A DNA stretch of 26,912 nt from a virus (lineage: Duplodnaviria; Caudoviricetes): IMG/VR virus record IMGVR_UViG_3300032327_000745, positions 1 through 26,912 of that record. The stretch is one strand, 5' to 3'. Every line of letters starts with the position of its first letter. Within the stretch, counting starts at the first letter, position 1. The position numbers were made by a program, and so were the translations under genes. The notes under the pieces are model-generated. The model ran no database searches. It worked only from the letters and a program-made list of their open reading frames with translations, and had not been told where the DNA came from. Positions 893 to 22,665 of the stretch are shown piece after piece.

Positions 893-1807
893 TTACGAAG
901 TTGGGAACGAACCGTAGATCGAACGCCAGTTGTAGTAGCCGAAGCTGTAACGCTCATAACCCTTGACGAGCAGGTTATCTGTCACAAAATCGACTTGCAT
1001 GTCTGTTTCAAATTTGACACGCTCCATATAGGAGAGACCGTCAATATTCGTCAACAAGAACCAAGCAAACTGCGAAGTCAAGAAGTCATTGACCATGTAA
1101 CCTTCAGGCAAACCACCTGCGGTCATCATGATGGCATTGACATCGTTGTCTGCGGAGCCGGGGCGCAATTCAGTCTTAGTAAGACGGATTGCTGTTGGTT
1201 CCAACTGCGGAGGCACAACCAGCTTGCGAGCGCGGGCAAACACTTTCAGACCAGCCTGATCCTTGAAGTTGGTCCGCACGGCAATCATGCTGTTCAGCAG
1301 GGTTGCTTCGTTCAGGTCAACGTCAGTGGTAGGACGGTTTGCTACAGTGCTTCCATCGATTGGGTGGTTGGTAGCGCAGAGAGCGACACCGTCACCGCCA
1401 ATGTTGGCATTGTAAGTGGTAGCCGTGTTCAACACGTTCGCACCATAGATTTCTTTGGTCTGCTGGAAAGATTCAATCAAACCCAAGTTCGATGGCATGA
1501 ACTGTGTTTTGTAGAGGTTGTCATCGATTGCCTTGCGGGTAATCGCGTAGCCGAGAGCAATTTCAGTATGCTCTTGGTTATAGACGTAACGCTCACCTGC
1601 GCTGTTGTCGAACTGGGTCTGACCACCTTCAGTCTTCAACTGGGCAAGGCCCAAGAAGCGCATTTCAGCGGTGCGTTCCAGAGCCATTTTCGACTCATGC
1701 TTGGTGAACAGCTTGTCATACTGAGATGGGATCATCTCGTATTTGCCTTCAACCCCACGGAGGCCGGGGAGCAGAAGGTCTTTAATGGCACTAAGATTGA
1801 CAGCCAT
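893..1807 (-). CDS. Major capsid protein (Mu gpT-like, HK97 fold)
   Basis: 304 aa with LLLPGL...GLAQLKTEG...ALGYAIT...DDNLY...LVVPPQL...AWFL...ERYSFG pattern; AGAGGAG SD; head-cluster position. Confidence 0.88.
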   Translation of the reverse strand: MAVNLSAIKDLLLPGLRGVEGKYEMIPSQYDKLFTKHESKMALERTAEMRFLGLAQLKTEGGQTQFDNSAGERYVYNQEHTEIALGYAITRKAIDDNLYKTQFMPSNLGLIESFQQTKEIYGANVLNTATTYNANIGGDGVALCATNHPIDGSTVANRPTTDVDLNEATLLNSMIAVRTNFKDQAGLKVFARARKLVVPPQLEPTAIRLTKTELRPGSADNDVNAIMMTAGGLPEGYMVNDFLTSQFAWFLLTNIDGLSYMERVKFETDMQVDFVTDNLLVKGYERYSFGYYNWRSIYGSFPTS

Positions 1808-2524: not shown

Positions 2525-3103
2525 TCAGTCGCGTGGGACTGGGATTGGCTCATAGCCCTTTTTAATCGAAGGACGAACCCGATCATGCTCTCGCGTCATC
2601 GTGCCGTCTGGTGTGGAACTAAGTTGCGCCTCTTTAGCGCGGACTTGATTCCTAGCCCTCCGTGATTCTACATCACGCGCTTCTTCTGTCAACTCCAAAG
2701 GCCGCTCCATAAGAATCATGCCATCGCGCTCAATCAGGCCGCTTTTCCAACCTGTCGGCATCAGTGCAAGATGACGAGCATCACGGTTAGCAGGAACTGG
2801 TTCCCAACCGCCAGCGGCAAGGCGAACCTGATAAGATGGGTCTTCCTGACCATAGATCGTGTGACGCTTCCACTCATAAGTCCAGCCATCTGGAACCATC
2901 GCCTGATCAATAGCGAACCGATCCACATCGTCCAGATCGACACCAGAGCGGTTGCCACGGATGGCATCTGCGCGCTTCTTCGCCCGTTCGCGGGGGTCTT
3001 CGTCGCGCATAGCTGGGCGCATTTCAGACCGACGAACTTCTGATCCCGAAACCTCGTCCATTTTGGGCTTGGTTTTGGTCAACTTTGCAATTTCTTCACT
3101 CAT
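2525..3103 (-). CDS. Conserved phage head-cluster hypothetical protein
   Basis: TGATG coupling to the scaffold stop; PDGWTYEWKR...GWEPV...GMILMERP motifs. Confidence 0.7.
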   Translation of the reverse strand: MSEEIAKLTKTKPKMDEVSGSEVRRSEMRPAMRDEDPRERAKKRADAIRGNRSGVDLDDVDRFAIDQAMVPDGWTYEWKRHTIYGQEDPSYQVRLAAGGWEPVPANRDARHLALMPTGWKSGLIERDGMILMERPLELTEEARDVESRRARNQVRAKEAQLSSTPDGTMTREHDRVRPSIKKGYEPIPVPRD

Positions 3104-3999
3104 CAGAGTTTTCCTTCTTTTTTCAGATCAAGCATGTTTTTGGCATATTCTTCGGGTGTCATGCCCATCATTGATGCCATTTCCTTCATATCAGCCGTCA
3201 AACGCACGGTTGTGGTGCGCCCGCCAGTGCTGGAAGCCGTCCGTGTGGATGGCGCGGCAGGTGGCGCAGAACGGTTCTGAGTGGCCTTTGATGCTGATGA
3301 CAAGATGACTTCCTCGCCCTGATCCACCTGAGCCTGACGGTTAAAGCCCATCTGGTTTTCGATGAAGTTGAAATAATCGTCGCTGTCAGGGGCATAACCA
3401 TCAGCAACAGCGATGTTGTGCGCTCCAACCATCTTTTGATACAGACGTTGGTCGGTGACACACTGTGGATGCGCCCGGACCCATGCCGCAGACCGAGGCG
3501 ACAACTGCGCCGCAACCTGCTCAATTGGGTCCATTCTTGGCGGTTCAATTGGCTTCACAGGTTGTGAAAGGCGACCCTCAAGGGAAACCTTGCCGTTCTC
3601 CAATTGAAGCAATTTAGCCGCTGTTGCGCTCATATACTGCTGAATTTCAGCCGCACGGTCGTAATCACCAGCCTGCATGGCATCACGATAGCCAGCTTTC
3701 ATGTAGTCTGATTCGCGGCTCAACTTGTCGATTGCGCCATTGATCAGTTGCAGGTCGCTGTTTTGCACCTCCAAGGAGGCACGTTGGACTTGCTCCTGAG
3801 CCTGATGAGCGCGTTGTTCTGCCTCATATCTAGCCCGTTTTTCCGATTCCAGACGCTCTTTCAGTTCAGCAATGCCGTCTTCTGGCGACTGACCGTCAAC
3901 AACAGCCTGTTTTTCTTCTTTTGCGGGTTTTTTCTCAACCGCTGGCGCATCGTCAAACGGAAGTTCCAATTCGACTTGAATGTCTTCGTTATCGCTCAT
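3103..3999 (-). CDS. Capsid scaffolding protein
   Basis: Acidic N-terminus, long coiled coil, low-complexity linker and short helical C-terminal tail (VRLT...GMTPEEYAK); GAGGTG SD; lies between portal and MCP. Confidence 0.75.
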   Translation of the reverse strand: MSDNEDIQVELELPFDDAPAVEKKPAKEEKQAVVDGQSPEDGIAELKERLESEKRARYEAEQRAHQAQEQVQRASLEVQNSDLQLINGAIDKLSRESDYMKAGYRDAMQAGDYDRAAEIQQYMSATAAKLLQLENGKVSLEGRLSQPVKPIEPPRMDPIEQVAAQLSPRSAAWVRAHPQCVTDQRLYQKMVGAHNIAVADGYAPDSDDYFNFIENQMGFNRQAQVDQGEEVILSSASKATQNRSAPPAAPSTRTASSTGGRTTTVRLTADMKEMASMMGMTPEEYAKNMLDLKKEGKL

Positions 4000-4007
4000 A
4001 AATCACC

Positions 4008-4400
4008 TCACCAAATTACATCTGGGGCAGGAAGAACGCCCCGCACATCGACATCGTCCAAAATCCGGCACGGGACGCCGTGGACAACCAAAGACCAGCC
4101 CTCTGCGGGACGGAAATAAATCCAATCGCCCACATTCACCTCAACGCCGTCGAACCAAACGCTTTTGGTGTCAACAAACGCCTGACTGCCTTTTTTGATG
4201 ACCAAGCCGACCTTGCCTTGATATTTGTCCTCATCGCGGGTTGCTCCGGGCAACATGATGCCGCCGCTGGTCACATCCGGGCGCACATAGGTGGCAACCA
4301 TGACCTGATTGTTGAATAACTGAATACCGCTGGTGTCGCCCAATTCTTTAAGAATTGTTTCCTTGGGGTCTTCAGCGTGATGCATCCTCATAAAAGGCAT
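4008..4400 (-). CDS. groES: GroES/Cpn10-like co-chaperonin
   Basis: Mobile loop TSGGIMLP, then GKVGLVIKKG, VNVGDWI and RILDDVDVRG. Start revised to ATG 4400 with an AGAGGA SD. Confidence 0.85.
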   Translation of the reverse strand: MPFMRMHHAEDPKETILKELGDTSGIQLFNNQVMVATYVRPDVTSGGIMLPGATRDEDKYQGKVGLVIKKGSQAFVDTKSVWFDGVEVNVGDWIYFRPAEGWSLVVHGVPCRILDDVDVRGVLPAPDVIW

Positions 4401-4401
4401 T

Positions 4402-4611
4402 TTATCCTCTTTCTCCTGTTGTGATGATCCGATCCGCTTCGGCAATCAGTTCTCTAGCCTGTTCAAGCCCTTTGATGATGCCCACGCGAAATTTGTAATC
4501 CTTGATGTCATCGATCAGCCCTGAAGACAGCACTGTGCTGACCTCGAAGACAGCCTCGTCAATCAAGCGGTTTGCTTCATATTCAAGTCGATTGGTGTAT
4601 GTCTGTTTCAT
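4402..4611 (-). CDS. Small conserved hypothetical protein upstream of GroES
   Basis: Helical, DYKFRVGIIKGL; abuts the groES start. Confidence 0.65.
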   Translation of the reverse strand: MKQTYTNRLEYEANRLIDEAVFEVSTVLSSGLIDDIKDYKFRVGIIKGLEQARELIAEADRIITTGERG

Positions 4612-5117: not shown

Positions 5118-6659
5118 TTACCACTTGGCCTGCTTCAAGCCGTATGCAGGGGGTTTTTCCAAACGGGCATTGCCGCCGCCTGATCCCGTGGTAATTGGGT
5201 ATTTATAGGCACGGCCCCCATCCTTGCGGGCCATCTTCTTCTCTTCGATCTCGGTCTTCTCAAGGCGACCCAGACCAGAGCCAGCACCAGCGTCCATGTC
5301 TTTATAAGACCGATAGACACGACCACCCGCCTTGCGAGGCATTGGAGGCATGCCCATTGGCGCGGGGCCACCTGCTGGCATTGGAGGAGGACCGCCCATG
5401 CCGCCTTTAGCCGCCAAAGCCGCCAGCACGGCTGGGTCCATGCCCTGCCCGCCGGGAGCCATTGGCATTGGGGGTGGCGGACCCATTGGAGGCTTAGGAC
5501 CACCCATTGGCATTGGAGGCATAGGCAGACCGCCAAGATCAGGTTGCTGACCGCCGTTTGGAGCAATCACGATGTTGATGTTGGTCTTGCCCTTAGCCCG
5601 ACCGCCCGAAGCACGGGCCGTGCGCCCGCCGACAGCCCCCGGAACTTTAAACGGATAACCTTGGCCAGTGAACACGCCACCGCCATCTTTGCGTTCAGCG
5701 CGACCGCCCGACTTCAAACCCTTCATGGACTGCTGTTTGTCGTGCTTCTCATCCATCTTGGACTTTTCCCAAGACTTCATCGACATGCCGTGCTTCTTCG
5801 CCAGCTTCTTGTCTTCAGCCATATCTTTCTTGGAGCCTTCAAACTTGTCGAAGCCGCCATTCTTGCGAGGCATTGCATCAGGGGAGACAACCGAAGTTGG
5901 CGTGGTCATCATCCGCTTTTTCATCAAGTTTGGAGCGGCTGGGCCTGCGAGGATTGTGCCGCCAGCTTCCTTCTTGGTGCGCCCGCCGCGCTTCATCATT
6001 GGCGAATCACCTTGGCCCATAGGAATGCCAGTCGAACCAATCATGCCGCCATCAACGCGCTTGGCACGACCGCCCCCGCACTTCGCCATAGCTTTGCCGC
6101 CCTTCTTCAGGCCAGCAGGACGCTCTGGAGGCATTGGAACTGGACGGGGTGGAGGCATAGGTGTTTCATACCCTACGCCCTTACGAATTTCGTCATCAGT
6201 CACATACTTGCCGCCCGGACCAGTGATGCCTCTGGTGCTGATGTCCTTGTTCATGGGGTGTTTTGGGCTGGTGACAGGAACGTCTTCGACCTTGCCGTAT
6301 GTCGCATGCTTTGCACGACCGCCACGTTTCAATGCACCAACATGCTTCACGCCTTCACGGTGTTCATTGGCGCGTTTGTCATCGCGGTTGATGAAGCTGT
6401 CAATCTCGGTTGGCTTCTCAACACGACCGCCAGATTTGCGCTTCATGCGGTCATTGCGGACCTTTGCGGCTTTGCCAACAACCTTGCCGCCAGATTTGAA
6501 GGCGCGTTTGCTGATTGGGCGCATGCCAGTCTTGGCGGTGGTATTCAGCGGCTCTGCGGGTGACCAAGATGACGAATCAACCTTCTGCGACGATGCAGTG
6601 GTCATGTCCTTGGCCTTTTTTGCGGACCCAGAACGAGCCGCCTTTAGATACTCATGCAT
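5118..6659 (-). CDS. Basic K/M/G/P-rich protein with about 14 x-[K/A]-x-GG repeats (putative internal head protein)
   Basis: 513 aa; AGGAG SD; FKSGG, RKSGG, LKRGG, LKKGG, MKRGG, RKDGG, RKAGG and others; Pro/Met-rich tract; two G-x-G-x-G-xx-RLEK repeats at the C-terminus. Confidence 0.75.
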   Translation of the reverse strand: MHEYLKAARSGSAKKAKDMTTASSQKVDSSSWSPAEPLNTTAKTGMRPISKRAFKSGGKVVGKAAKVRNDRMKRKSGGRVEKPTEIDSFINRDDKRANEHREGVKHVGALKRGGRAKHATYGKVEDVPVTSPKHPMNKDISTRGITGPGGKYVTDDEIRKGVGYETPMPPPRPVPMPPERPAGLKKGGKAMAKCGGGRAKRVDGGMIGSTGIPMGQGDSPMMKRGGRTKKEAGGTILAGPAAPNLMKKRMMTTPTSVVSPDAMPRKNGGFDKFEGSKKDMAEDKKLAKKHGMSMKSWEKSKMDEKHDKQQSMKGLKSGGRAERKDGGGVFTGQGYPFKVPGAVGGRTARASGGRAKGKTNINIVIAPNGGQQPDLGGLPMPPMPMGGPKPPMGPPPPMPMAPGGQGMDPAVLAALAAKGGMGGPPPMPAGGPAPMGMPPMPRKAGGRVYRSYKDMDAGAGSGLGRLEKTEIEEKKMARKDGGRAYKYPITTGSGGGNARLEKPPAYGLKQAKW

Positions 6660-6689: not shown

Positions 6690-9600
6690 TTACAGTCTGG
6701 AAAGAATACTCTGAATCTTGCGGTCAAACAATGGGTCTGAACGCATTTCGTTATGGATCAGATGTGCCAACCGAATTGCATTGTTGGCAGAATTGTTGGC
6801 ATGGGGAGACCCGCCACGGGCGTATCCGCTGTTGTCTCCTTGTCCGCTGTCATTACCAGACCCTTGGGATTCGGCTTGGCTTCCTGAATTTGCATCTGGT
6901 CCACCTGCGCTTGCGTCAGGACCACCAGCAGAAGCATCTGGCCCACCACCCAAACCACCGCCACCCCCAACGCCATTGGCTGAATCAGCCGCACTGTTTG
7001 CACTAGCTTGATCTGCGGCATTTTGAGCGGAAGTAGCGGCGGCTTGGTCAGCGGACATAGCCGCCGCCATTTCAGGCGCACCGACTGCACGACCAGCCGC
7101 CGAATTGGCGTTTTCTTGATCTGCCGCAGTCTGCGCCGCTGGCGTCCCTAAATCATTCGAGACTGCCGCCGCCATTGCGGCATTGGTATTGGCGTTTTGC
7201 GCCGCCGTTTGTGCCGCTGTCTGCGCCGCAGTTGCCTTGCCTGATGCGGCATCTGCTTTTGCCGCCATATCTGCCTTTGCCGCCGCCATTGCCGCCGCAA
7301 GTTCGGGGCTGATTGAAGGGGCGGCAAGGGAGCTTGCCATCGCACGGCCCGCAAGACCTCCAACAAGCCCGCCAACAGGCCCAGCAACTGCGGTTCCCAA
7401 AGCGGAACCAAGCATGCCGCCTGCCATAGTCCCAAACCCGCCGCCAAACATGCCGCTGAGACCTGACTGACCGGGCGTCCCCAACCCACTGCCGGGTCCA
7501 CCGGGGCCAACGGATGAATTTCCACCGCCGCCGCTACCGCCGCCACCTTCATAGGTTGACACGGTTGGTTCAACTTTGGGTGCTGTAGGGTTTGCCGCAA
7601 CAGGGGGCGCAACAGGAGGAATATACGATGGCCCTTGCTGACCTGATGGAATATTATCCACAGTTGATGGCATTGCAGGGTTGAATTGGAACGGTTGGAT
7701 GCCCTGTATACCGCTATAGATGTCATAAGGCGAACCGCCATAGGCATACCCGCCACGGGCAAGCCTTAATGCGCCATCGACTGCACCACCATCAGCGCGA
7801 GTTTCTTCCCCACGCATTTCATTCGCGCCCAATGCGGCAGGGATAATTCCGTATTTGCGCAAAATGTCGATTAATTTGTCATCAAACATAACGTAATTGC
7901 TCGTTTGTTTTCCACCCAACCGAGAACCTGCGTCCAAATATTGAATGCCTTTTAAACCTGCGTCATGCAACATATCAGTTGTTTTTTGGGGGCCATACGC
8001 CCCGCGCAAATAGTCAATGATTGCACCTCCAGCATAATCGTCAGGGTTTCCAACAAACTCGCGCAACCCACCAATGCGCCGTTCATCTTTTGGAACAATT
8101 TTATTGATAGCGTCAAGAACATAAGGGTTTTGTTCTGTTAAATCTTTATCCCAATTTAACATATGTTCTGGGTGTGCATTGATATTTACTTCATACATGT
8201 GGCCGCGCACCTTCATTGCCTCTTTGGCAAGGCGTTGTGCTTCATCAAAATCAATACTTTGGCCATATTTTTTGGCAAGACCCATCATGACATCCATATC
8301 TCGTGCATCGGGTTGTGTTGCCAAATGAAATGCGGCTTCTTCTTTTGGGTTCATATGCCCAGAATAATACCGATACCGTGCCTCTGGGTCGCCACGGTAT
8401 GTTTGCGCTACAGGTTCTGCTTCAGCAAGGTATAATCCATGACCGTATGATTGTGCGCCTTCACCAGTGTTAATTTTTTTGATGTCAAACCGATCAAAAT
8501 CATGAGGAGAACCATGATATGCACGAATGCCTTCCCATGCTTTTGAAAGTGCATCTGAAACTGCACTACCAGCGCGTTTCAAATTGTTTCCCTGCCCAGC
8601 CTCAGCAGGATTGATCATTTGATCCAAAGCAACAGTGCCAGCACCAATTGCTTTGCGGATAGGCCCACCACCGGGCATTGCCATAAGGGCAACGTCTGTT
8701 GCGCTCTGTGGAATGACAAAATCTGACGTTCCCAAAAGCCTTTCAAATCCTTTTGCAACCCGTTCACCGCCAAGAGTTGGCCTACCAGTCCCTGTTTGTG
8801 GGCCTTTTTCTGCCAAATACTGACCAACATCTTCATACCAGCGTGGTTCTTCAGTTCTTGTTGGCGTGATTGTGTCATTGCGGGATGCAATAATATTTTT
8901 GGAATCTTTAATCAGTTGATCCAGAGTCGTTTGATCCATTTCAGATTGATCATCTACATAGCCTTCCGTTGCATAGCCCCCACGGGCATAGCCAATTTTG
9001 CCGCCAGTTGATTTTGTAATATCAGGGTTCAATGAATCAAAAGTTCCACGATTTTCTGTTGCCGATTTGATTTGGTTTGGTTCAAAAGCAACATACGTTC
9101 CACCTTCCATTTTGGCAAAATCATGCGGGTTTCCCCACCCTCCAGTGATTTCACCAATGTTTTTGTCGTATAAACTGTAGGTTCCGTTATCAGTCTTTTT
9201 AAGATATTGACCGTTTGCTCTCCCTGTAGGGACAGGCAACCCAGAACTCAGCTCCGCCAACTGACTTTCGGAAAATTTGACGGGGGGTTCATGAATAACA
9301 CCATCATACCCGGCGTTCGCCAAAATGTTTCTTACACTGTTTTGAAGCGTATCGGACCTATCGCCGTTTTCCCATTGCTCAATTGCACCTTTTACAACGG
9401 ATTCAGGCGCAGGATTTTTCAATGCCACATGAAAAGGGCGAACTTCAGCATCAGGAGCATTTGGTCTTCCATAAGGAAATTTTCCTGCGCGTAAGGCGTC
9501 CCGTTCATTGGAACTAAACCAAAATCCATTATAGGGGGCATCTGGGTCATTTGGGTTTATTTTTGATTTGTCGAAAACGGTAAACCCTTTTTCTGGAGAC

Positions 9601-9929
9601 CCGTGGTATAAGGTTGGTTCGACCATTGGGTGGTTATTTTCCATAAACCGTGCCAAATTTTCTTCGTGTTTTGGCTGGCCACCCATCAATTTTTTGGCGG
9701 CGTTGACAGCCTCTTCAACCGCACCAGCAACAGGTTTTACAAATCCTTTGCCCGAATAACCCCCGCGCTCAAATTTCATCTGACCAACAGGCCAGTTCTT
9801 GCGGATCACTGATGCGTAATCACCGCCGCCAGCCAAGGGGACAGATGATTCGGCGAGTGTCTGCAACGCCTGATTGTAGGCATTGGTTGCACTGATTTCG
9901 TCCGCATCATCGCCCTTGTAAACCGCCAT
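6690..9929 (-). CDS. Large polyvalent protein with two ADP-ribosyltransferase-like (ART-PolyVal-type) domains
   Basis: Domain 1: LYHGS...GFWFS...GYDGVI...YVAFEPNQIKSATENRGTFD. Domain 2: AYHGSPHDFDRFD...GEGAQSYGHGLYL...GLKGIQYLD...NYVMFDD. G/A-rich low-complexity C-terminus; directly follows the portal. Confidence 0.75.
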   Translation of the reverse strand: MAVYKGDDADEISATNAYNQALQTLAESSVPLAGGGDYASVIRKNWPVGQMKFERGGYSGKGFVKPVAGAVEEAVNAAKKLMGGQPKHEENLARFMENNHPMVEPTLYHGSPEKGFTVFDKSKINPNDPDAPYNGFWFSSNERDALRAGKFPYGRPNAPDAEVRPFHVALKNPAPESVVKGAIEQWENGDRSDTLQNSVRNILANAGYDGVIHEPPVKFSESQLAELSSGLPVPTGRANGQYLKKTDNGTYSLYDKNIGEITGGWGNPHDFAKMEGGTYVAFEPNQIKSATENRGTFDSLNPDITKSTGGKIGYARGGYATEGYVDDQSEMDQTTLDQLIKDSKNIIASRNDTITPTRTEEPRWYEDVGQYLAEKGPQTGTGRPTLGGERVAKGFERLLGTSDFVIPQSATDVALMAMPGGGPIRKAIGAGTVALDQMINPAEAGQGNNLKRAGSAVSDALSKAWEGIRAYHGSPHDFDRFDIKKINTGEGAQSYGHGLYLAEAEPVAQTYRGDPEARYRYYSGHMNPKEEAAFHLATQPDARDMDVMMGLAKKYGQSIDFDEAQRLAKEAMKVRGHMYEVNINAHPEHMLNWDKDLTEQNPYVLDAINKIVPKDERRIGGLREFVGNPDDYAGGAIIDYLRGAYGPQKTTDMLHDAGLKGIQYLDAGSRLGGKQTSNYVMFDDKLIDILRKYGIIPAALGANEMRGEETRADGGAVDGALRLARGGYAYGGSPYDIYSGIQGIQPFQFNPAMPSTVDNIPSGQQGPSYIPPVAPPVAANPTAPKVEPTVSTYEGGGGSGGGGNSSVGPGGPGSGLGTPGQSGLSGMFGGGFGTMAGGMLGSALGTAVAGPVGGLVGGLAGRAMASSLAAPSISPELAAAMAAAKADMAAKADAASGKATAAQTAAQTAAQNANTNAAMAAAVSNDLGTPAAQTAADQENANSAAGRAVGAPEMAAAMSADQAAATSAQNAADQASANSAADSANGVGGGGGLGGGPDASAGGPDASAGGPDANSGSQAESQGSGNDSGQGDNSGYARGGSPHANNSANNAIRLAHLIHNEMRSDPLFDRKIQSILSRL

Positions 9930-15660: not shown

Positions 15661-16053
15661 CTATGAAGGCGAATTACTCAGTCTTTGCTTTTTTGACATG
15701 GCCTTCACCTTCGCAGTCCATTCATCAGCCAATCTGCGCGTGGACTCAAAGTCAAGATCGGCATCGACGTTGCCCGTGATTTTGCCTTCGTTTTTCAGAT
15801 CAAGCAGGTTCTTTGCGTATTTCTCTGCTGACATCCCCCAGAGTTCGCACAGTTCAATCTGCTCACTGGTCAAAGCCACCGTCACAGGCATGCGAACCAT
15901 GTAAGTCGGAACCGTCACCGCTGTTGTTGCAACCGTTTCAGCAACCGCCAATGGTGCGGCTTCCACTGCCGCAGGGATTGCCGCCTTCGCACCAGCCGTT
16001 GCCGCGCCAGCACCAAGGCCAAGCATGGCAAGGAAAGATCGCCGCTTCATCAT
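15661..16053 (-). CDS. Twin-arginine (Tat) signal protein carrying a scaffold-tail homolog
   Basis: MMKRRSFLAMLGLGAGAATAGAKA (RRxFL, h-region, AxA); residues at 15778-15882 are 19/35 identical to the scaffold C-terminus. Start revised from 16089. Confidence 0.75.
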   Translation of the reverse strand: MMKRRSFLAMLGLGAGAATAGAKAAIPAAVEAAPLAVAETVATTAVTVPTYMVRMPVTVALTSEQIELCELWGMSAEKYAKNLLDLKNEGKITGNVDADLDFESTRRLADEWTAKVKAMSKKQRLSNSPS

Positions 16054-16609: not shown

Positions 16610-16858
16610 TTACGCCAAATCTGTTGGAGGTTGCCAGACATACCGATAACCATTGAAAACAAACCCATGCCCGACAAGGACTTCTTTGAAGTTTGCCAAA
16701 GACTTAACCCCAAAATTACGACAGTCGAGCAACTCTGTGTCATCCAACAAAGCAAAGTCAGCCAATTTAAAATCAAAAGGAAAATTGTTCTTCAAACAAG
16801 TTTGAACCCTTTGTGAGAAACCAGCATCGTATAAGTCTATGGTCTTTGGGTCTTGCAT
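16610..16858 (-). CDS. Stand-alone RNA polymerase alpha C-terminal-domain-like protein
   Basis: FSQRVQTCLK and ELLDCRNFGVKSLANFKEVLVGHG align with E. coli RpoA LTVRSANCLK and [30 protein letters not shown] SD. Confidence 0.8.
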   Translation of the reverse strand: MQDPKTIDLYDAGFSQRVQTCLKNNFPFDFKLADFALLDDTELLDCRNFGVKSLANFKEVLVGHGFVFNGYRYVWQPPTDLA

Positions 16859-16898: not shown

Positions 16899-18599
16899 TC
16901 AAACAGGATACAATGGGGTGTCGCCCGTATTCCCACGGAATGTTTGCTTCTCGCTCAACTCAGCCGTCCGCTCCTCGCCACGCTGGATCATGCCAGTCTG
17001 CCGGAGCCAGTTCATCGCCTGCGTCACGGTGTCGTGCAAGTCATCGTGCTTGCCCTTAGGAAATTCTTCACATTGCGTGATCACCATCTGCGCCCACACC
17101 CGATCCTCCGGCGCATGCACAAGCCCCTCGCTGAACAGATGCTGGATCGCATAGGTGCGGCTTACTTTGTCCACACCCAGCGGGTCGATCAGCCTCACGC
17201 CCCACTGCTCGTGTGCATACAGCCGCCTGATCTCCTGCGCCACGCTGATGCCGCTGGCCTTGTTCTCGATCAGCAGGGTGTCCACCTTGAACTGCTTGCA
17301 CTCCTTCGCCACCACCGTCACCAGTTCGTGGATCGGAACGCGGCCCTGCCACGCATGCATCATGATGACCTTCGGCACATCCGCTTCCACCCCAGCCTTC
17401 TCGATGCGGGTCGTGATCTGACCGAACTGGTGGTCTCTGGTCACCACACCCGTGGTCTCCCCGCTGTCACGCCACACGCCCCAGATGGTCAGCGCACTGA
17501 AGTCGCCCTCGTGCTGTCTCGCGCCATAGGCACAGTCAAGGCTGGCCACAACGAACTCAAGGCTGTCGGGAAACTTAGGCCGATCCCACGGTTGCCACCA
17601 CAGGCGTTCGATGATGCCCCCACCGCCAACGACAGGGCTTTGCTGTAGCTGACCCGCCGCCTTGGCTGGACCCATCGTCTTCTCCAGCAGGGTCACCTCG
17701 TTGTCGCCGAACCGCTCAGGCCAAAGCAGTTCGCCCTCGGCCTGTCGGGGGTCGGCCCAGATGATCGGCTCACCATCGTCGGTCGCCCACGCAGGGGCCA
17801 GCACCGTGGTCGGGGATCGGTGCGGCTCATAGCGCATGGGAAGCATCAGGTGCGTCCACTCGTCTTGGCTGTTCTCGATCAGATGCTCGGAGATGTCCTT
17901 CCGGCTGATTCGCTGTTGGATCACGATGCGGCAACCGTATCCCTGACGCAGGTCGTTCAGGCGGTTGTAGAACGCGCCATCCCACCAGTCTCTGGCGGTT
18001 GCTGTCACCAGATCGGAGTGGCTCTGCATCACGTTATTGATATCGTCAGCCAGCAGGATCGCGCCGCCCTTACCAGTGGTCGCCGATCCAGTGGACACGC
18101 ACTCACGCAGACCGCCCTTGTCATTGCCGAACTTAGCGATGGTGTTCTGATCCGCCAGCAGGCTGAACCGATTGCCCCACCGTTTCTGATACCAGTCCGA
18201 TTCCACCAGCAGGCGGGTCTTGCGGGCCGCATCGAGCGCGAGGTTCAGTCCATACGAGGCGCACAGAAACTTGACCTGCGGACCCTTGAGCGGGCCGATG
18301 TCGCGTTGCGCCCAGACCCACCCGCAGAACAGCACCGAGCAGATCGTGGTCTTCGACATGCGCGGCGGGATGTTCACCAGCAGGTTCGGGATGTAGCCAT
18401 CGACGCAACTCATCAGGTGATCGCACACGGCTTGGATCGCCCAGCTATCGATGAACTGCGCGGGATCGACCACATGCCACGCCTCTCGGACGAACTCATA
18501 CAGGTCGCGCTCCAGCCGGAGACGCTCGGCTTCCAACAGCAGATCGTCGATGTCCTTGTATGTGAGGTTCGATGGATCGAGGCCGCTGATGTCGGTCAT
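16899..18599 (-). CDS. terL: Terminase large subunit
   Basis: Walker A NIPPRMSKT, Walker B ILLADD, coupling motif IQQR; nuclease SLDCA...DFSA...IENKASG...FPKGKHDDLHD. Confidence 0.95.
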   Translation of the reverse strand: MTDISGLDPSNLTYKDIDDLLLEAERLRLERDLYEFVREAWHVVDPAQFIDSWAIQAVCDHLMSCVDGYIPNLLVNIPPRMSKTTICSVLFCGWVWAQRDIGPLKGPQVKFLCASYGLNLALDAARKTRLLVESDWYQKRWGNRFSLLADQNTIAKFGNDKGGLRECVSTGSATTGKGGAILLADDINNVMQSHSDLVTATARDWWDGAFYNRLNDLRQGYGCRIVIQQRISRKDISEHLIENSQDEWTHLMLPMRYEPHRSPTTVLAPAWATDDGEPIIWADPRQAEGELLWPERFGDNEVTLLEKTMGPAKAAGQLQQSPVVGGGGIIERLWWQPWDRPKFPDSLEFVVASLDCAYGARQHEGDFSALTIWGVWRDSGETTGVVTRDHQFGQITTRIEKAGVEADVPKVIMMHAWQGRVPIHELVTVVAKECKQFKVDTLLIENKASGISVAQEIRRLYAHEQWGVRLIDPLGVDKVSRTYAIQHLFSEGLVHAPEDRVWAQMVITQCEEFPKGKHDDLHDTVTQAMNWLRQTGMIQRGEERTAELSEKQTFRGNTGDTPLYPV

Positions 18600-20963: not shown

Positions 20964-21560
20964 ATGTCCTTCATCGAAAACGAAGCCCGCTACGAAGCCG
21001 CCATCCGCCGCCGCATTGCAGAGAACACCCGCATTGGCGGTGAACGCCGCTTCAAGGCCGCGCATGCAGATGCTGATACGCTGATCGAGTTCGTCAACTG
21101 CAACGTGTCAGACGCGCAGATCGCTCGTGGCCCGCATGTCAAAACCCCAGACGCTAAGTTCATCGATGCCTGCTGGTGCAGTGTTCAGGTGTTCGGTGGT
21201 CTGACCGATAAACAGGCTGAGGCTGTCCGCAACGTCATCACCAAGCGTGAGGAGCGCAAGGCTGAGTTTCGCGCCCAGAACCTCGCTAGCCAGCACATCG
21301 GCACTGTCGGCGAACGCCGCGACTTCGAACTGACCGTTTCGTTTGTGACTGACTTCCAGACCCAGTTCGGCATCACCAATGTTTTTGGTCTGCGCGATGC
21401 TGATGGCAACATCGTGATCTACAAAGGTTCGTCAGCCCTCTACAACGCTGATGACCAGTTCGCTGTTAAAGGCGACACCGTCAAGGTCAAAGCGACCATC
21501 AAGGAACACGGCGAACGCGATGACGTGAAGCAGACCATCATCGCCCGCCCAAAACAGTAA
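20964..21560 (+). CDS. Hypothetical protein with C-terminal OB-fold-like domain
   Basis: HIGTVGER...DADGNIVIYKG...GDTVKVKATIKEH...QTII; start revised to ATG 20964. Confidence 0.7.
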   Translation: MSFIENEARYEAAIRRRIAENTRIGGERRFKAAHADADTLIEFVNCNVSDAQIARGPHVKTPDAKFIDACWCSVQVFGGLTDKQAEAVRNVITKREERKAEFRAQNLASQHIGTVGERRDFELTVSFVTDFQTQFGITNVFGLRDADGNIVIYKGSSALYNADDQFAVKGDTVKVKATIKEHGERDDVKQTIIARPKQ

Positions 21561-21564
21561 AGGC

Positions 21565-21580
21565 AGGGGCTTCGGCCCCT
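21565..21580 (+). other. C(UUCG)G hairpin without U-tract
   Basis: AGGGGC-TTCG-GCCCCT; part of a 19-bp exact repeat with 20846-20864. Confidence 0.7.
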
Positions 21581-21626
21581 ACCCACCACTATCTGAATAT
21601 CCCCACCTGTTAATCGGAGAACCACT

Positions 21627-21851
21627 ATGACCGTGCAAGTCACCTTCAACGATATCTGCGAATCAACCAATGCAATCCTGCGCCACGCCCGCAATAAGGC
21701 CATGCTGGGCAACTCATCTTACCCTGATGCCTACATTGTCGGCTACTTCAGCGGGTTCATCGAAACATTCTTCTTGGACCAGCCCGACAATGTCCGACAG
21801 GCTTATTTGGATGATGTGGCGCGTCATATCGAAACCCACGGCGAAAAATAA
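21627..21851 (+). CDS. Hypothetical protein
   Basis: CGGAGA SD; YPDAYIVGYF motif. Confidence 0.65.
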   Translation: MTVQVTFNDICESTNAILRHARNKAMLGNSSYPDAYIVGYFSGFIETFFLDQPDNVRQAYLDDVARHIETHGEK

Positions 21852-21853
21852 TT

Positions 21854-21949
21854 GGAAAATATTTTACAGCCCTGTTGACAATGGTTTTAAGCTATGCCAT
21901 AAACGTATCACTGCAACGGGGCTGATGCCCAACACAACGGAGAACGACA
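21854..21949 (+). promoter_or_regulatory. Cassette promoter P4 with TAAGCTATGCC box and leader
   Basis: GGAAAATATTTTACA 21854-21868; TTGACA 21875-21880, 17 bp, CATAAA; box 21888-21898; GGGC-TGAT-GCCC hairpin; CAACGGAGAACGACAATG. Confidence 0.8.
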
Positions 21950-22222
21950 ATGGAAGCCTTCACTTTTGAACACGACCAGATCGAAACCACCATTGGCCTA
22001 ATCGATGTTTATTTCGATGTTCAGTTTCAAATCATCGAAGACGAGACTGGCAAAGAATGCGAGTGGGAACCAGATCACACCCTCCATGCCAGCCTTTGGA
22101 ACGAAGACGGCGAAAATACTGATCTGCTGATCAAGCACGGTGAGCCGCTTTATTACGAGGTTCTCAAAAAGTGCAATGATGCGATCATTGACGAGTGCTA
22201 CGAGAATGCATCTGGCTGGTAA
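21950..22222 (+). CDS. Small acidic hypothetical protein
   Basis: Conserved leader; D/E-rich with few basic residues. Confidence 0.7.
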   Translation: MEAFTFEHDQIETTIGLIDVYFDVQFQIIEDETGKECEWEPDHTLHASLWNEDGENTDLLIKHGEPLYYEVLKKCNDAIIDECYENASGW

Positions 22223-22338
22223 AATAATTTGCAGGGCGGTGTAAAATAATTTGCATCGCCCTCTTTACAATCAACATAAGCTATGCCATAACAATATCAC
22301 TGCAACAGGGCAACAGCCCAAACCAACGGAGAACGACA
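22219..22338 (+). promoter_or_regulatory. Cassette promoter P5 with duplicated upstream AT element
   Basis: GTAAAATAATTTGCA at 22219 and 22241; TTTACA 22264-22269, 17 bp, CATAAC; box 22277-22287; GGGC-AACA-GCCC hairpin; CAACGGAGAACGACAATG. Confidence 0.75.
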
Positions 22339-22665
22339 ATGTTGAATTTCATCCCCGCCCCCGATGTCAGCGAACTGACCGATTGGGAACTGTCCGACGA
22401 ACTGGGCCGCTTGCACACCCTGCATGCCGCCATCACCAAGAAACTGGAAGCCGCCAAAGACCGTTACAAGGCGCGTGGTCTGACCGAAGTGTCTGGCCTT
22501 CACTATACAGTAACAGTCGGCGAATCCACCAAATGGATTTTGGATCAGGCTGGCATCAAGGAAGAGTTCGGTGAGGCTTGGTGCAATAAGCGTTCAAAAC
22601 TGGTCACCAGCAAATCGCTTCGGGTCAAGCCGACCGTGAAACTGGAAAAGGCTGATACCCTGTGA
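22339..22665 (+). CDS. Hypothetical protein (coiled coil plus beta C-terminus)
   Basis: Conserved leader and SD. Confidence 0.7.
   Translation: MLNFIPAPDVSELTDWELSDELGRLHTLHAAITKKLEAAKDRYKARGLTEVSGLHYTVTVGESTKWILDQAGIKEEFGEAWCNKRSKLVTSKSLRVKPTVKLEKADTL

Follow-up and report, generated by a model that had tools for sequence, protein, structure and literature searches.

A small gene on the minus strand of a phage contig encodes a protein in which a twin-arginine-type leader is joined to a copy of the helix-turn-helix in which the likely scaffolding protein of the same phage ends. The gene is real, is conserved without being essential to every relative's gene set, and has no description in the literature searched. 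The best reading of its product, to which we give a probability of about 0.4, is a Tat-targeted sink for unassembled capsid protein.

Architecture and genomic setting of the fusion gene

The window, that is, the whole stretch of DNA that was analysed, is a 26.9-kb phage contig, the full-length relatives of which measure 54-64 kb. The fusion gene is made up of the following parts:

15661..16053, minus strand: whole gene, 130 aa, with a Tat-type leader, a linker, a scaffold-tail copy and a variable extension
15982..16053, minus strand: twin-arginine-type leader, residues 1-24, with K-RR-S-FL, 17 uncharged residues and K23
15898..15981, minus strand: A/T/V/P-rich linker, residues 25-52, a low-confidence model region
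15883..15897, minus strand: V-R-M-P-V stretch preceding the tail copy, residues 53-57, conserved in the family
15778..15882, minus strand: copy of the scaffold C-terminal helix-turn-helix, residues 58-92, 19/35 identical, a predicted capsid-binding module
15661..15777, minus strand: variable C-terminal extension, residues 93-130 and the stop

The count of 130 residues was made from the ATG of MMKRR, the start methionine shared by the relatives, and in-frame starts are found up to 16089. The KRRSFL leader and the A/T/V linker described in the initial annotation are both present, the latter being A/T/V/P-rich, and the residues A22-K23-A24 of the leader may form an AxA cleavage site. Across 28 family sequences the linker is 23-38 residues long, and the model of the 130-aa protein has pLDDT values below 50 at residues 14-40. 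Helices are predicted in the tail copy at residues 63-71 and 76-88. The copy is followed by 38 further residues in the window's protein and by an extension of 18-81 residues in 27/28 family sequences (the remaining one is truncated), whereas the tail of the scaffold is followed by 0-2 residues before the stop in 124/124 scaffolds. The 83-aa sequence P0021, which matches the L048 protein through the first tail helix and then diverges, is a truncated copy or an assembly error. A fold search of the small protein against the PDB gave 0 matches at E <= 0.001 (model pLDDT 58.8, from a 4-sequence alignment), and the best score in an Atlas search was 0.77, to an unnamed match.

The minus strand of the window carries genes for a helicase, a primase, the small and large terminase subunits, an SU10-type portal and a GroES-like protein, followed by the scaffold ORF, two ORFs and the capsid gene. 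Those most relevant to the fusion gene are:

16899..18599, minus strand: terminase large subunit (phrog_38, E 2e-74), 0.85 kb upstream of the fusion gene and on the same strand
3103..3999, minus strand: likely scaffolding protein, 298 aa, of the donor family of the tail
3106..3210, minus strand: scaffold C-terminal tail, residues 264-298
893..1807, minus strand: major capsid protein, 304 aa (phrog_371, E 7e-13)

The fusion gene lies on the same strand as the terminase gene, and at most 2.2 kb from it, in 7/7 distinct contexts with a terminase on the contig; these contexts are the window/L001, L048, L049/L050, L057/L058, L059, L060 and G037, with G010 and L047 outside the count. The gene is optional. 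Among 10 full-length relatives, chosen by scaffold or capsid, it was found in one, G037, which belongs to the five virus records in this set that are at least 90% complete. It is absent from W01 and from four contigs of 54-62 kb (G016-G019), and G002, which is 85% complete, is without the gene at the site occupied in L060. No tyrosine integrase (PF00589) was found in 10/10 relatives, a set that includes five genomes with a completeness of 90% or more, and the control was positive in 14/14 genomes, so a resident prophage state is not indicated. The window also encodes a GcrA homologue, which we take to hint at an alphaproteobacterial host.

Several other features were observed in the window. 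An 82-aa protein encoded between the large terminase gene and the fusion gene (16610-16858, minus strand) has a match to PF03118, the C-terminal domain of RNA polymerase alpha (E 1e-5), and an ORF of similar look precedes an 88-aa tail-copy ORF in G018, described below. After the portal gene lies the gene for a 1,079-aa protein with two ART-PolyVal stretches (6690-9929, minus strand; E 9e-24), possibly an injected internal protein, and its slot holds different large proteins in relatives. The head genes are flanked by genes for basic Gly/Pro/Met-rich proteins with repeated K/R-x-G-G motifs (5118-6659 and 88-369, both on the minus strand), which are conserved in relatives and gave no family match. 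A gene for a GroES-like co-chaperonin (4008-4445, minus strand) stands directly upstream of the scaffold gene in every mapped relative (W01, G002, G010 and G037). Repeated intergenic blocks of about 65-110 bases, 77-85% alike by BLAST against L001, were found at 21486-22341, where they precede small plus-strand genes and are possibly early promoters.

Leader, tail copy and fusion family

Tat substrates are described in PMC13673990 as sharing the consensus Z-R-R-X-phi-phi, with a basic c-region in only a subset of them. In the fusion family, RRSFL is located at residues 3-9 in 28/28 distinct sequences, with K (23 sequences), L (4) or E (1) at the Z position. It is followed in all 28 by 14-21 uncharged residues, and the first charged residue thereafter is K in 27. 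The best 13-residue Kyte-Doolittle mean of the h-region is 1.5-2.3. Two short models of Tat signals matched weakly: PF10518 in 6/24 members (best E 0.061, none at the Pfam cut-off) and TIGR01409 in 7/24 (best E 0.0017), the window's own protein not being among the latter. Judged by its anatomy in 28/28 sequences, the leader is probably the Tat-type signal that had been claimed for it. The likeness to Tat signal peptides (PF10518/TIGR01409) lies in the twin-arginine motif, the length of the uncharged h-region and the basic residue next to it; the difference lies in the passenger, which is here a piece of a cytoplasmic virion-assembly protein and whose export is putative.

The RRSFLAMLG leader also heads four unrelated phage proteins of 80-146 aa, and a second twin-arginine-leader family (RRKFL, about 160-170 aa, without a known domain) occurs in three related phages:

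L002:454-699, L061:4933-5373, L062:4958-5230 and L063:9989-10291: proteins with the RRSFLAMLG leader
L080:551-1054 (minus strand), L060:10293-10769 and L215:1111-1731: RRKFL family, adjoining the fusion gene in L060

Given the presence of the same leader on unrelated small phage proteins, together with the RRKFL gene beside the fusion gene, the leader is a portable module, and one that may act on its own. On five other twin-arginine-leader ORFs, no virion-protein fragment was found among 7,725 reading frames or PHROGs below E 0.1. The L063 gene lies near a large terminase gene, in a bacterial contig. The nearest link between a phage and Tat found in the literature is Mu gp25, for which PMC9239132 gives a speculative twin-arginine motif with reversed topology.

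Residues 58-92 of the fusion protein align without gaps to residues 264-298 of ORF 3103-3999, with 19/35 residues identical and 27/35 similar (pairwise E 8e-11), and 2,000 shuffles of the small ORF reached a maximum of 12/35 (mean 7.1), which confirmed the match between 15778-15882 and 3106-3210 that the initial annotation had drawn. Profile-profile alignment of the fusion family with the scaffold family covered 39 columns (P 97.9%, E 4e-13). The DNA stretch said to be shared by the two genes is present and is one base longer than stated:

15791..15806 against 3119-3134 of the scaffold gene: exact DNA match of 16 bases

The same codon is used at 10/18 identical residues, versus 4-7 of 13-17 (about a third) for eight more distant scaffolds, and gene conversion is possible behind the 16-base match. 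Residues L61, G73, M74, Y79, A80, N82, L86 and G90 are common to the family and all scaffolds, with L, A, Y and G invariant among 85 unique scaffold tails, and T62, Q65, C69 and L83 are specific to the family. The copies are also more acidic, with a mean charge of -1.5 versus +0.9 for scaffold tails. A winged-helix DNA-binding reading of the tail was rejected, as the tail has just two helices and the matches were weak (HTH_Crp_2 at E 0.005 for the scaffold, HTH_36 at E 0.26 in 1/24 family members).

Tracking of the own scaffold by the copy, raised as a question in the initial annotation, is not supported by the comparison of tails. When the copies were compared with 97 unique scaffold tails, that of the own scaffold came at rank 4 in the window, 26 in G010 and 37 in L059, and in G037 it is clearly not the best (22.7 bits, versus 29.6 for the best tail), so that it stands near the top in 1/4 phages. 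The G010 copy has drifted far (10/35 to its own scaffold), and the L059 scaffold was taken from contigs 97.6-97.8% identical across the terminase and portal genes. Recent copying from, or co-evolution with, the own scaffold is left unsupported by these ranks, and the tracking suggested by the LDLK and ALKREG endings failed in the larger tail panel.

The 298-aa ORF is very likely the scaffold that it had been taken for, by its gene position and by an AlphaFold2 layout matching the published P22 model. In the window, W01, G002, G010 and G037 it has the GroES-like gene on one side and the capsid genes on the other, and two ORFs without an assigned role separate it from the capsid gene. The AlphaFold2 model, based on 87 sequences (pLDDT 76.6), has a disordered region at residues 1-36, long helices at 39-145, a small helical domain at 158-224, a linker and a helix-turn-helix at the C-terminal end (269-295). 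The P22 scaffold gp8 is described with a disordered N-terminus, a long helix, a small helical domain and a helix-turn-helix at its C-terminus (bioRxiv 10.1101/2022.12.13.520362), and serves here as an analogy, without a sequence link to the P22 tail. The scaffold-family search gave 1,490 clusters at E <= 1e-5 among 3,471 candidates. The ORF gave no sequence match to PF09306, to which an Atlas search gave a lead at 0.86; BFVD gave 5 matches at E <= 0.001, all of them unnamed phage proteins, with a named scaffold at E 0.079, and PDB fold matches were generic helical hairpins. Phrog_328 was weakly matched by 38/87 scaffold-family members. The last 45-57 model positions of the Mu-like gpI protease/scaffold C-terminus (PF10123, phrog_328) are weakly matched by the scaffold, in its linker and the first helix of its tail (E 0.009 and 0.0045), as well as by the small ORF (E 0.011), but these matches are below cut-off and lie partly in the low-complexity linker, and the protease domain is absent here.

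Searches with the single sequence yielded three clusters, and metagenome contigs yielded two more at 43-49%; of 8,000 candidates scored with a six-sequence profile, 22 clusters reached E <= 0.01, and phmmer gave 10 matches among 1.84 billion representatives. The 24 aligned relatives are 34-73% identical, with a mean column identity of 40%, and R4-R5-S6-F7-L8-A9, G12, P56, L61, Q65 and A80 are invariant in the 24-sequence alignment, with V53 conserved in at least 90%. Comparison with L001 gave a dN/dS of 0.11 (14 synonymous and 5 non-synonymous differences), and dN/dS was 0.11-0.28 in all 7 computable of 12 gene pairs, three of the other five being saturated and two without synonymous change. 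In 8 distant pairs pN was 0.46-0.65 in the extension and 0.13-0.38 in the tail, as low as in the leader; the constrained parts are the leader and the tail, and the extension drifts. In a tree of 124 tails (97 scaffold tails, 25 family tails and 2 other copies; 35 columns, bootstrap not settled), the 25 family tails stand alone behind a 99/96 branch, of which a single origin is the simple reading, with rough support; P0021, which is cut after helix 1, was excluded from the tree and the tail statistics. The possibility of a one-off decaying duplication, considered in the initial annotation, is ruled out, because homologous fusions exist under purifying selection: the 24 relatives keep the tail and the invariant RRSFLA of the leader at these dN/dS values, and the tails form one clade.

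The most divergent member (L215:6600-6911, in G037) bears the leader RRFFLK, has two residues inserted in its tail, and directly follows the large terminase gene. The sole match in INPHARED was the scaffold tail of one phage, a GTDB scan with the family gave one locus with the leader only, and an exact-pattern scan of IMG/VR, of which 6 of 7 loci were read, gave three scaffolds, one fusion and two glutaredoxin-like chance matches.

Copies of the tail also occur outside the fusion family. In G018, an 88-aa ORF without a leader (L106:1486-1752, G018:C124:43543-43809) starts with a tail copy and continues with a basic helix; the copy shares 21/38 residues with the scaffold of its own phage, the first-ranked of the 97 tails, and has no convincing relatives in IMG/VR. 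In G019:C127, a more distant phage contig (portal 30%, terminase 28%), a 172-aa protein (L216:2066-2581, minus strand) combines a Bac_DnaA_C helix-turn-helix (E 1.6e-6) with a C-terminal tail-like 35-mer (E 9e-5 in a 1.5-Mb genome). Since these two copies group with another scaffold lineage, on long branches, the tail has likely been captured repeatedly, and the G018 copy is likely an independent capture.

A comparable reuse is described for SaPI1 CpmB, a small non-scaffold protein with the scaffold's C-terminal capsid-binding motif, which competes with the scaffold for the same capsid N-arm site (PMC5644958); the N-arm is also the docking site predicted here. CpmB is satellite-encoded, carries its motif at the C-terminus, dimerises and resizes the head, according to the same paper, whereas the fusion protein is encoded by the phage itself and has an export-type leader where CpmB has a dimer domain; its motif is followed by 18-81 residues, and its helix-turn-helix shows no sequence relation to the RIIK hook of CpmB. 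Two CpmB features are absent, namely the C-terminal motif (27/28 sequences are extended) and satellite encoding; the contig holds genes for the capsid, scaffold, portal, both terminases, primase and helicase, as does G037. In the full-text literature, outside of which subscription journals largely lie, no published phage Tat-leader protein with a scaffold fragment was found, in agreement with the earlier statement that no equivalent had been described.

Predicted capsid binding and readings of the fusion protein

The capsid protein is 85-98% identical in 23 relatives, the scaffolds of which are about 35-65% identical, and no solved relative was found by sequence for the capsid protein, the scaffold family or the fusion family. 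Co-folding of the capsid protein (23-row alignment) with residues 50-100 of the fusion protein (24 rows) gave a score of 0.62, versus 0.01 for the best of three controls. The co-folding mark is reached by 116/157 solved complexes and 2/215 mismatched pairs, counts that are only rough for these alignments. The runs share at least 97% of contacts, with a partner pLDDT of at least 76, and place the tail copy at the following site:

1754..1792, minus strand: capsid N-arm, residues 6-18, where the tail copy is predicted to dock

The predicted interface comprises capsid residues 6-18, 100-104 and 269 and lies within tail residues 64-94 (contacts at 64-65, 68, 71-74, 78-80, 82-83, 85-86 and 91-94), centred on Y79, N82, L83 and L86. 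Among the lowest-error contacts, Q65, Y79, A80 and L83 are invariant in 24 unique tails, L86 is conserved in 92% and N82 in 83%; the entropy of the 16 contact positions is 1.07 versus 1.45 for the other 19, a difference that is not significant (p 0.095). On the capsid side, residues 10-15, 17 and 18 are invariant in 23/23 relatives, and 11/16 contacts are invariant, which is close to the 190/304 of the whole protein.

The coat binding proposed in the initial annotation is in this way given a predicted pose on the N-arm. Close cousins of a true partner also pass, and scaffold-capsid complexes of the same general kind have been solved, so the copy may have passed co-folding just for being similar to the scaffold tail; the result shows likeness to a binder, not binding by the copy. 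The P22 scaffold tail binds the coat N-arm, the docking site predicted here, but its binding is described as electrostatic (bioRxiv 10.1101/2022.12.13.520362), whereas hydrophobic contacts make up most of the predicted interface and the copies are acidic on balance. For the 80alpha scaffold and for SaPI1 CpmB, too, the capsid N-arm is the binding site (PMC5644958). A near-invariant N-arm target would explain why tracking of the own scaffold is not needed, and would also mean that the protein could not spare the coat of its own phage or tell it from that of a rival.

If the fusion protein is a Tat-targeted sink, its tail copy would attach to the capsid N-arm, where the scaffold likely binds, and its leader would hold the copy-capsid pair at the inner membrane or carry it across via Tat. 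Hitchhiker export by Tat is known. As a monomeric mimic without the coiled-coil body, the protein could cap coat subunits and could not build a shell. The most plausible benefit would be that free coat is kept low or masked, with less firing of capsid-triggered host immunity; capsid proteins are described as triggers of Lit and Thoeris-like systems in PMC12926258. We infer the Tat targeting, the late expression and the purpose of the fusion gene. Against a sink stand the position of the copy, which is not the near-terminal one kept by 124/124 scaffolds, its greater acidity, the far drift of some members, the non-significant conservation of the contacts and the presence of the leader on unrelated small proteins. 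Moreover, with its gene next to those of the terminase, a sink for coat protein would deprive the phage of heads of its own if expression were not weak.

The main rival reading is an immune bait, in which the copy mimics a conserved phage pattern seen by a host sensor, the leader would drag the bound sensor to the membrane or out of the cytoplasm, and capsid binding is a by-product of the likeness. Patchy presence among variable small genes is typical of counter-defence genes, and the fusion gene is found in 1/10 full-length relatives, in a region of this kind; the lack of own-scaffold tracking and the family-specific Q65, C69 and L83 would fit a partner other than the own capsid. A bait is the strongest alternative, though less probable than the sink; against it, no sensor of scaffold tails was found in the literature searched, no virion-protein fragment was found on five other twin-arginine-leader ORFs, and leaderless tail copies exist. 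The mimics treated in EVADES are DNA mimics. It is less probable again that the leader is the working part, occupying or jamming the host Tat translocase, with the tail as a small stable folded passenger acquired once. The RRSFLAMLG leader on four unrelated proteins, the RRKFL-leader gene adjoining the fusion in L060 and the non-significant contact conservation (p 0.095) are in keeping with this, but the pN of the tail equals the low level of the leader, far under that of the extension, capsid-facing residues are among the invariant ones, and the copy passes co-folding as a predicted binder.

The initial annotation had offered a membrane tether, a decoy and a capsid-loaded protein. As a tether for head assembly, the protein would keep its leader uncleaved or stalled, and its tail would hold growing procapsids at the inner membrane; T4 prohead assembly is described as beginning on a membrane-bound portal (PMC9958956), uncleaved Tat anchors are described in Rieske proteins (PMC13673990), and both the predicted capsid binding and the terminase within 2.2 kb on the same strand in 7/7 contexts are consistent with such a role. 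The gene is missing, however, in 9/10 full-length relatives, with capsid proteins at least 85% identical where aligned. A completed Tat anchor, by its established topology, would moreover place the C-terminal domain in the periplasm. The scaffold site of 80alpha faces the shell interior (PMC5644958), so a partner held at the membrane could not keep its grip on a head that is closing, and we consider the tether improbable, with a similarly small chance that none of the readings listed here is correct. Slightly more remote is a capsid-loading tag, by which the protein would enter the head through its tail, in the manner of the scaffold, with the leader coming into play once the protein has been ejected into the next cell. 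The tails grafted on the basic-helix protein of G018 and the DnaA-type protein of G019:C127 would suit internal DNA-binding passengers, and the CpmB and scaffold tails are interchangeable capsid-binding tags according to PMC5644958, but a working Tat leader would clear the protein from the cytoplasm before head assembly, and the P22 scaffold is described as exiting the head at maturation (bioRxiv 10.1101/2022.12.13.520362). The poorest prospects are those of a decoy trapping the coat subunits of competing or superinfecting phages. Predicted capsid binding would allow it, and with so conserved an N-arm every phage of the clade would be open to it; the carrier, however, has the same target and hence no self-protection. 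The claim is weak because the target residues are invariant in 23/23 relatives, own and rival coat not being distinguishable, and no PF00589 integrase was found in 10/10 relatives.

Implications for the phage clade

The scaffold grip may be a portable tag in a large freshwater-type clade, which the fusion family would couple to Tat, removing or masking its own immune-triggering head proteins or a sensor. Such counter-defence by export, which would belong to a broader class of mimics built from Tat-tagged virion fragments, is put forward tentatively, with the odds somewhat against it.

In conclusion, the fusion gene has a specific predicted partner and surface. If its product both binds the capsid protein and is Tat-targeted, it would have no counterpart that was found in print, being an assembly motif of the phage itself that is coupled to an export route of the host. 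Such a gene would represent a new control of free coat protein or an evasion of capsid-sensing immunity. It would also identify where scaffold and capsid touch in a clade that numbers about 1,500 scaffold clusters and lacks a solved relative, and would offer a 35-residue capsid-binding tag.
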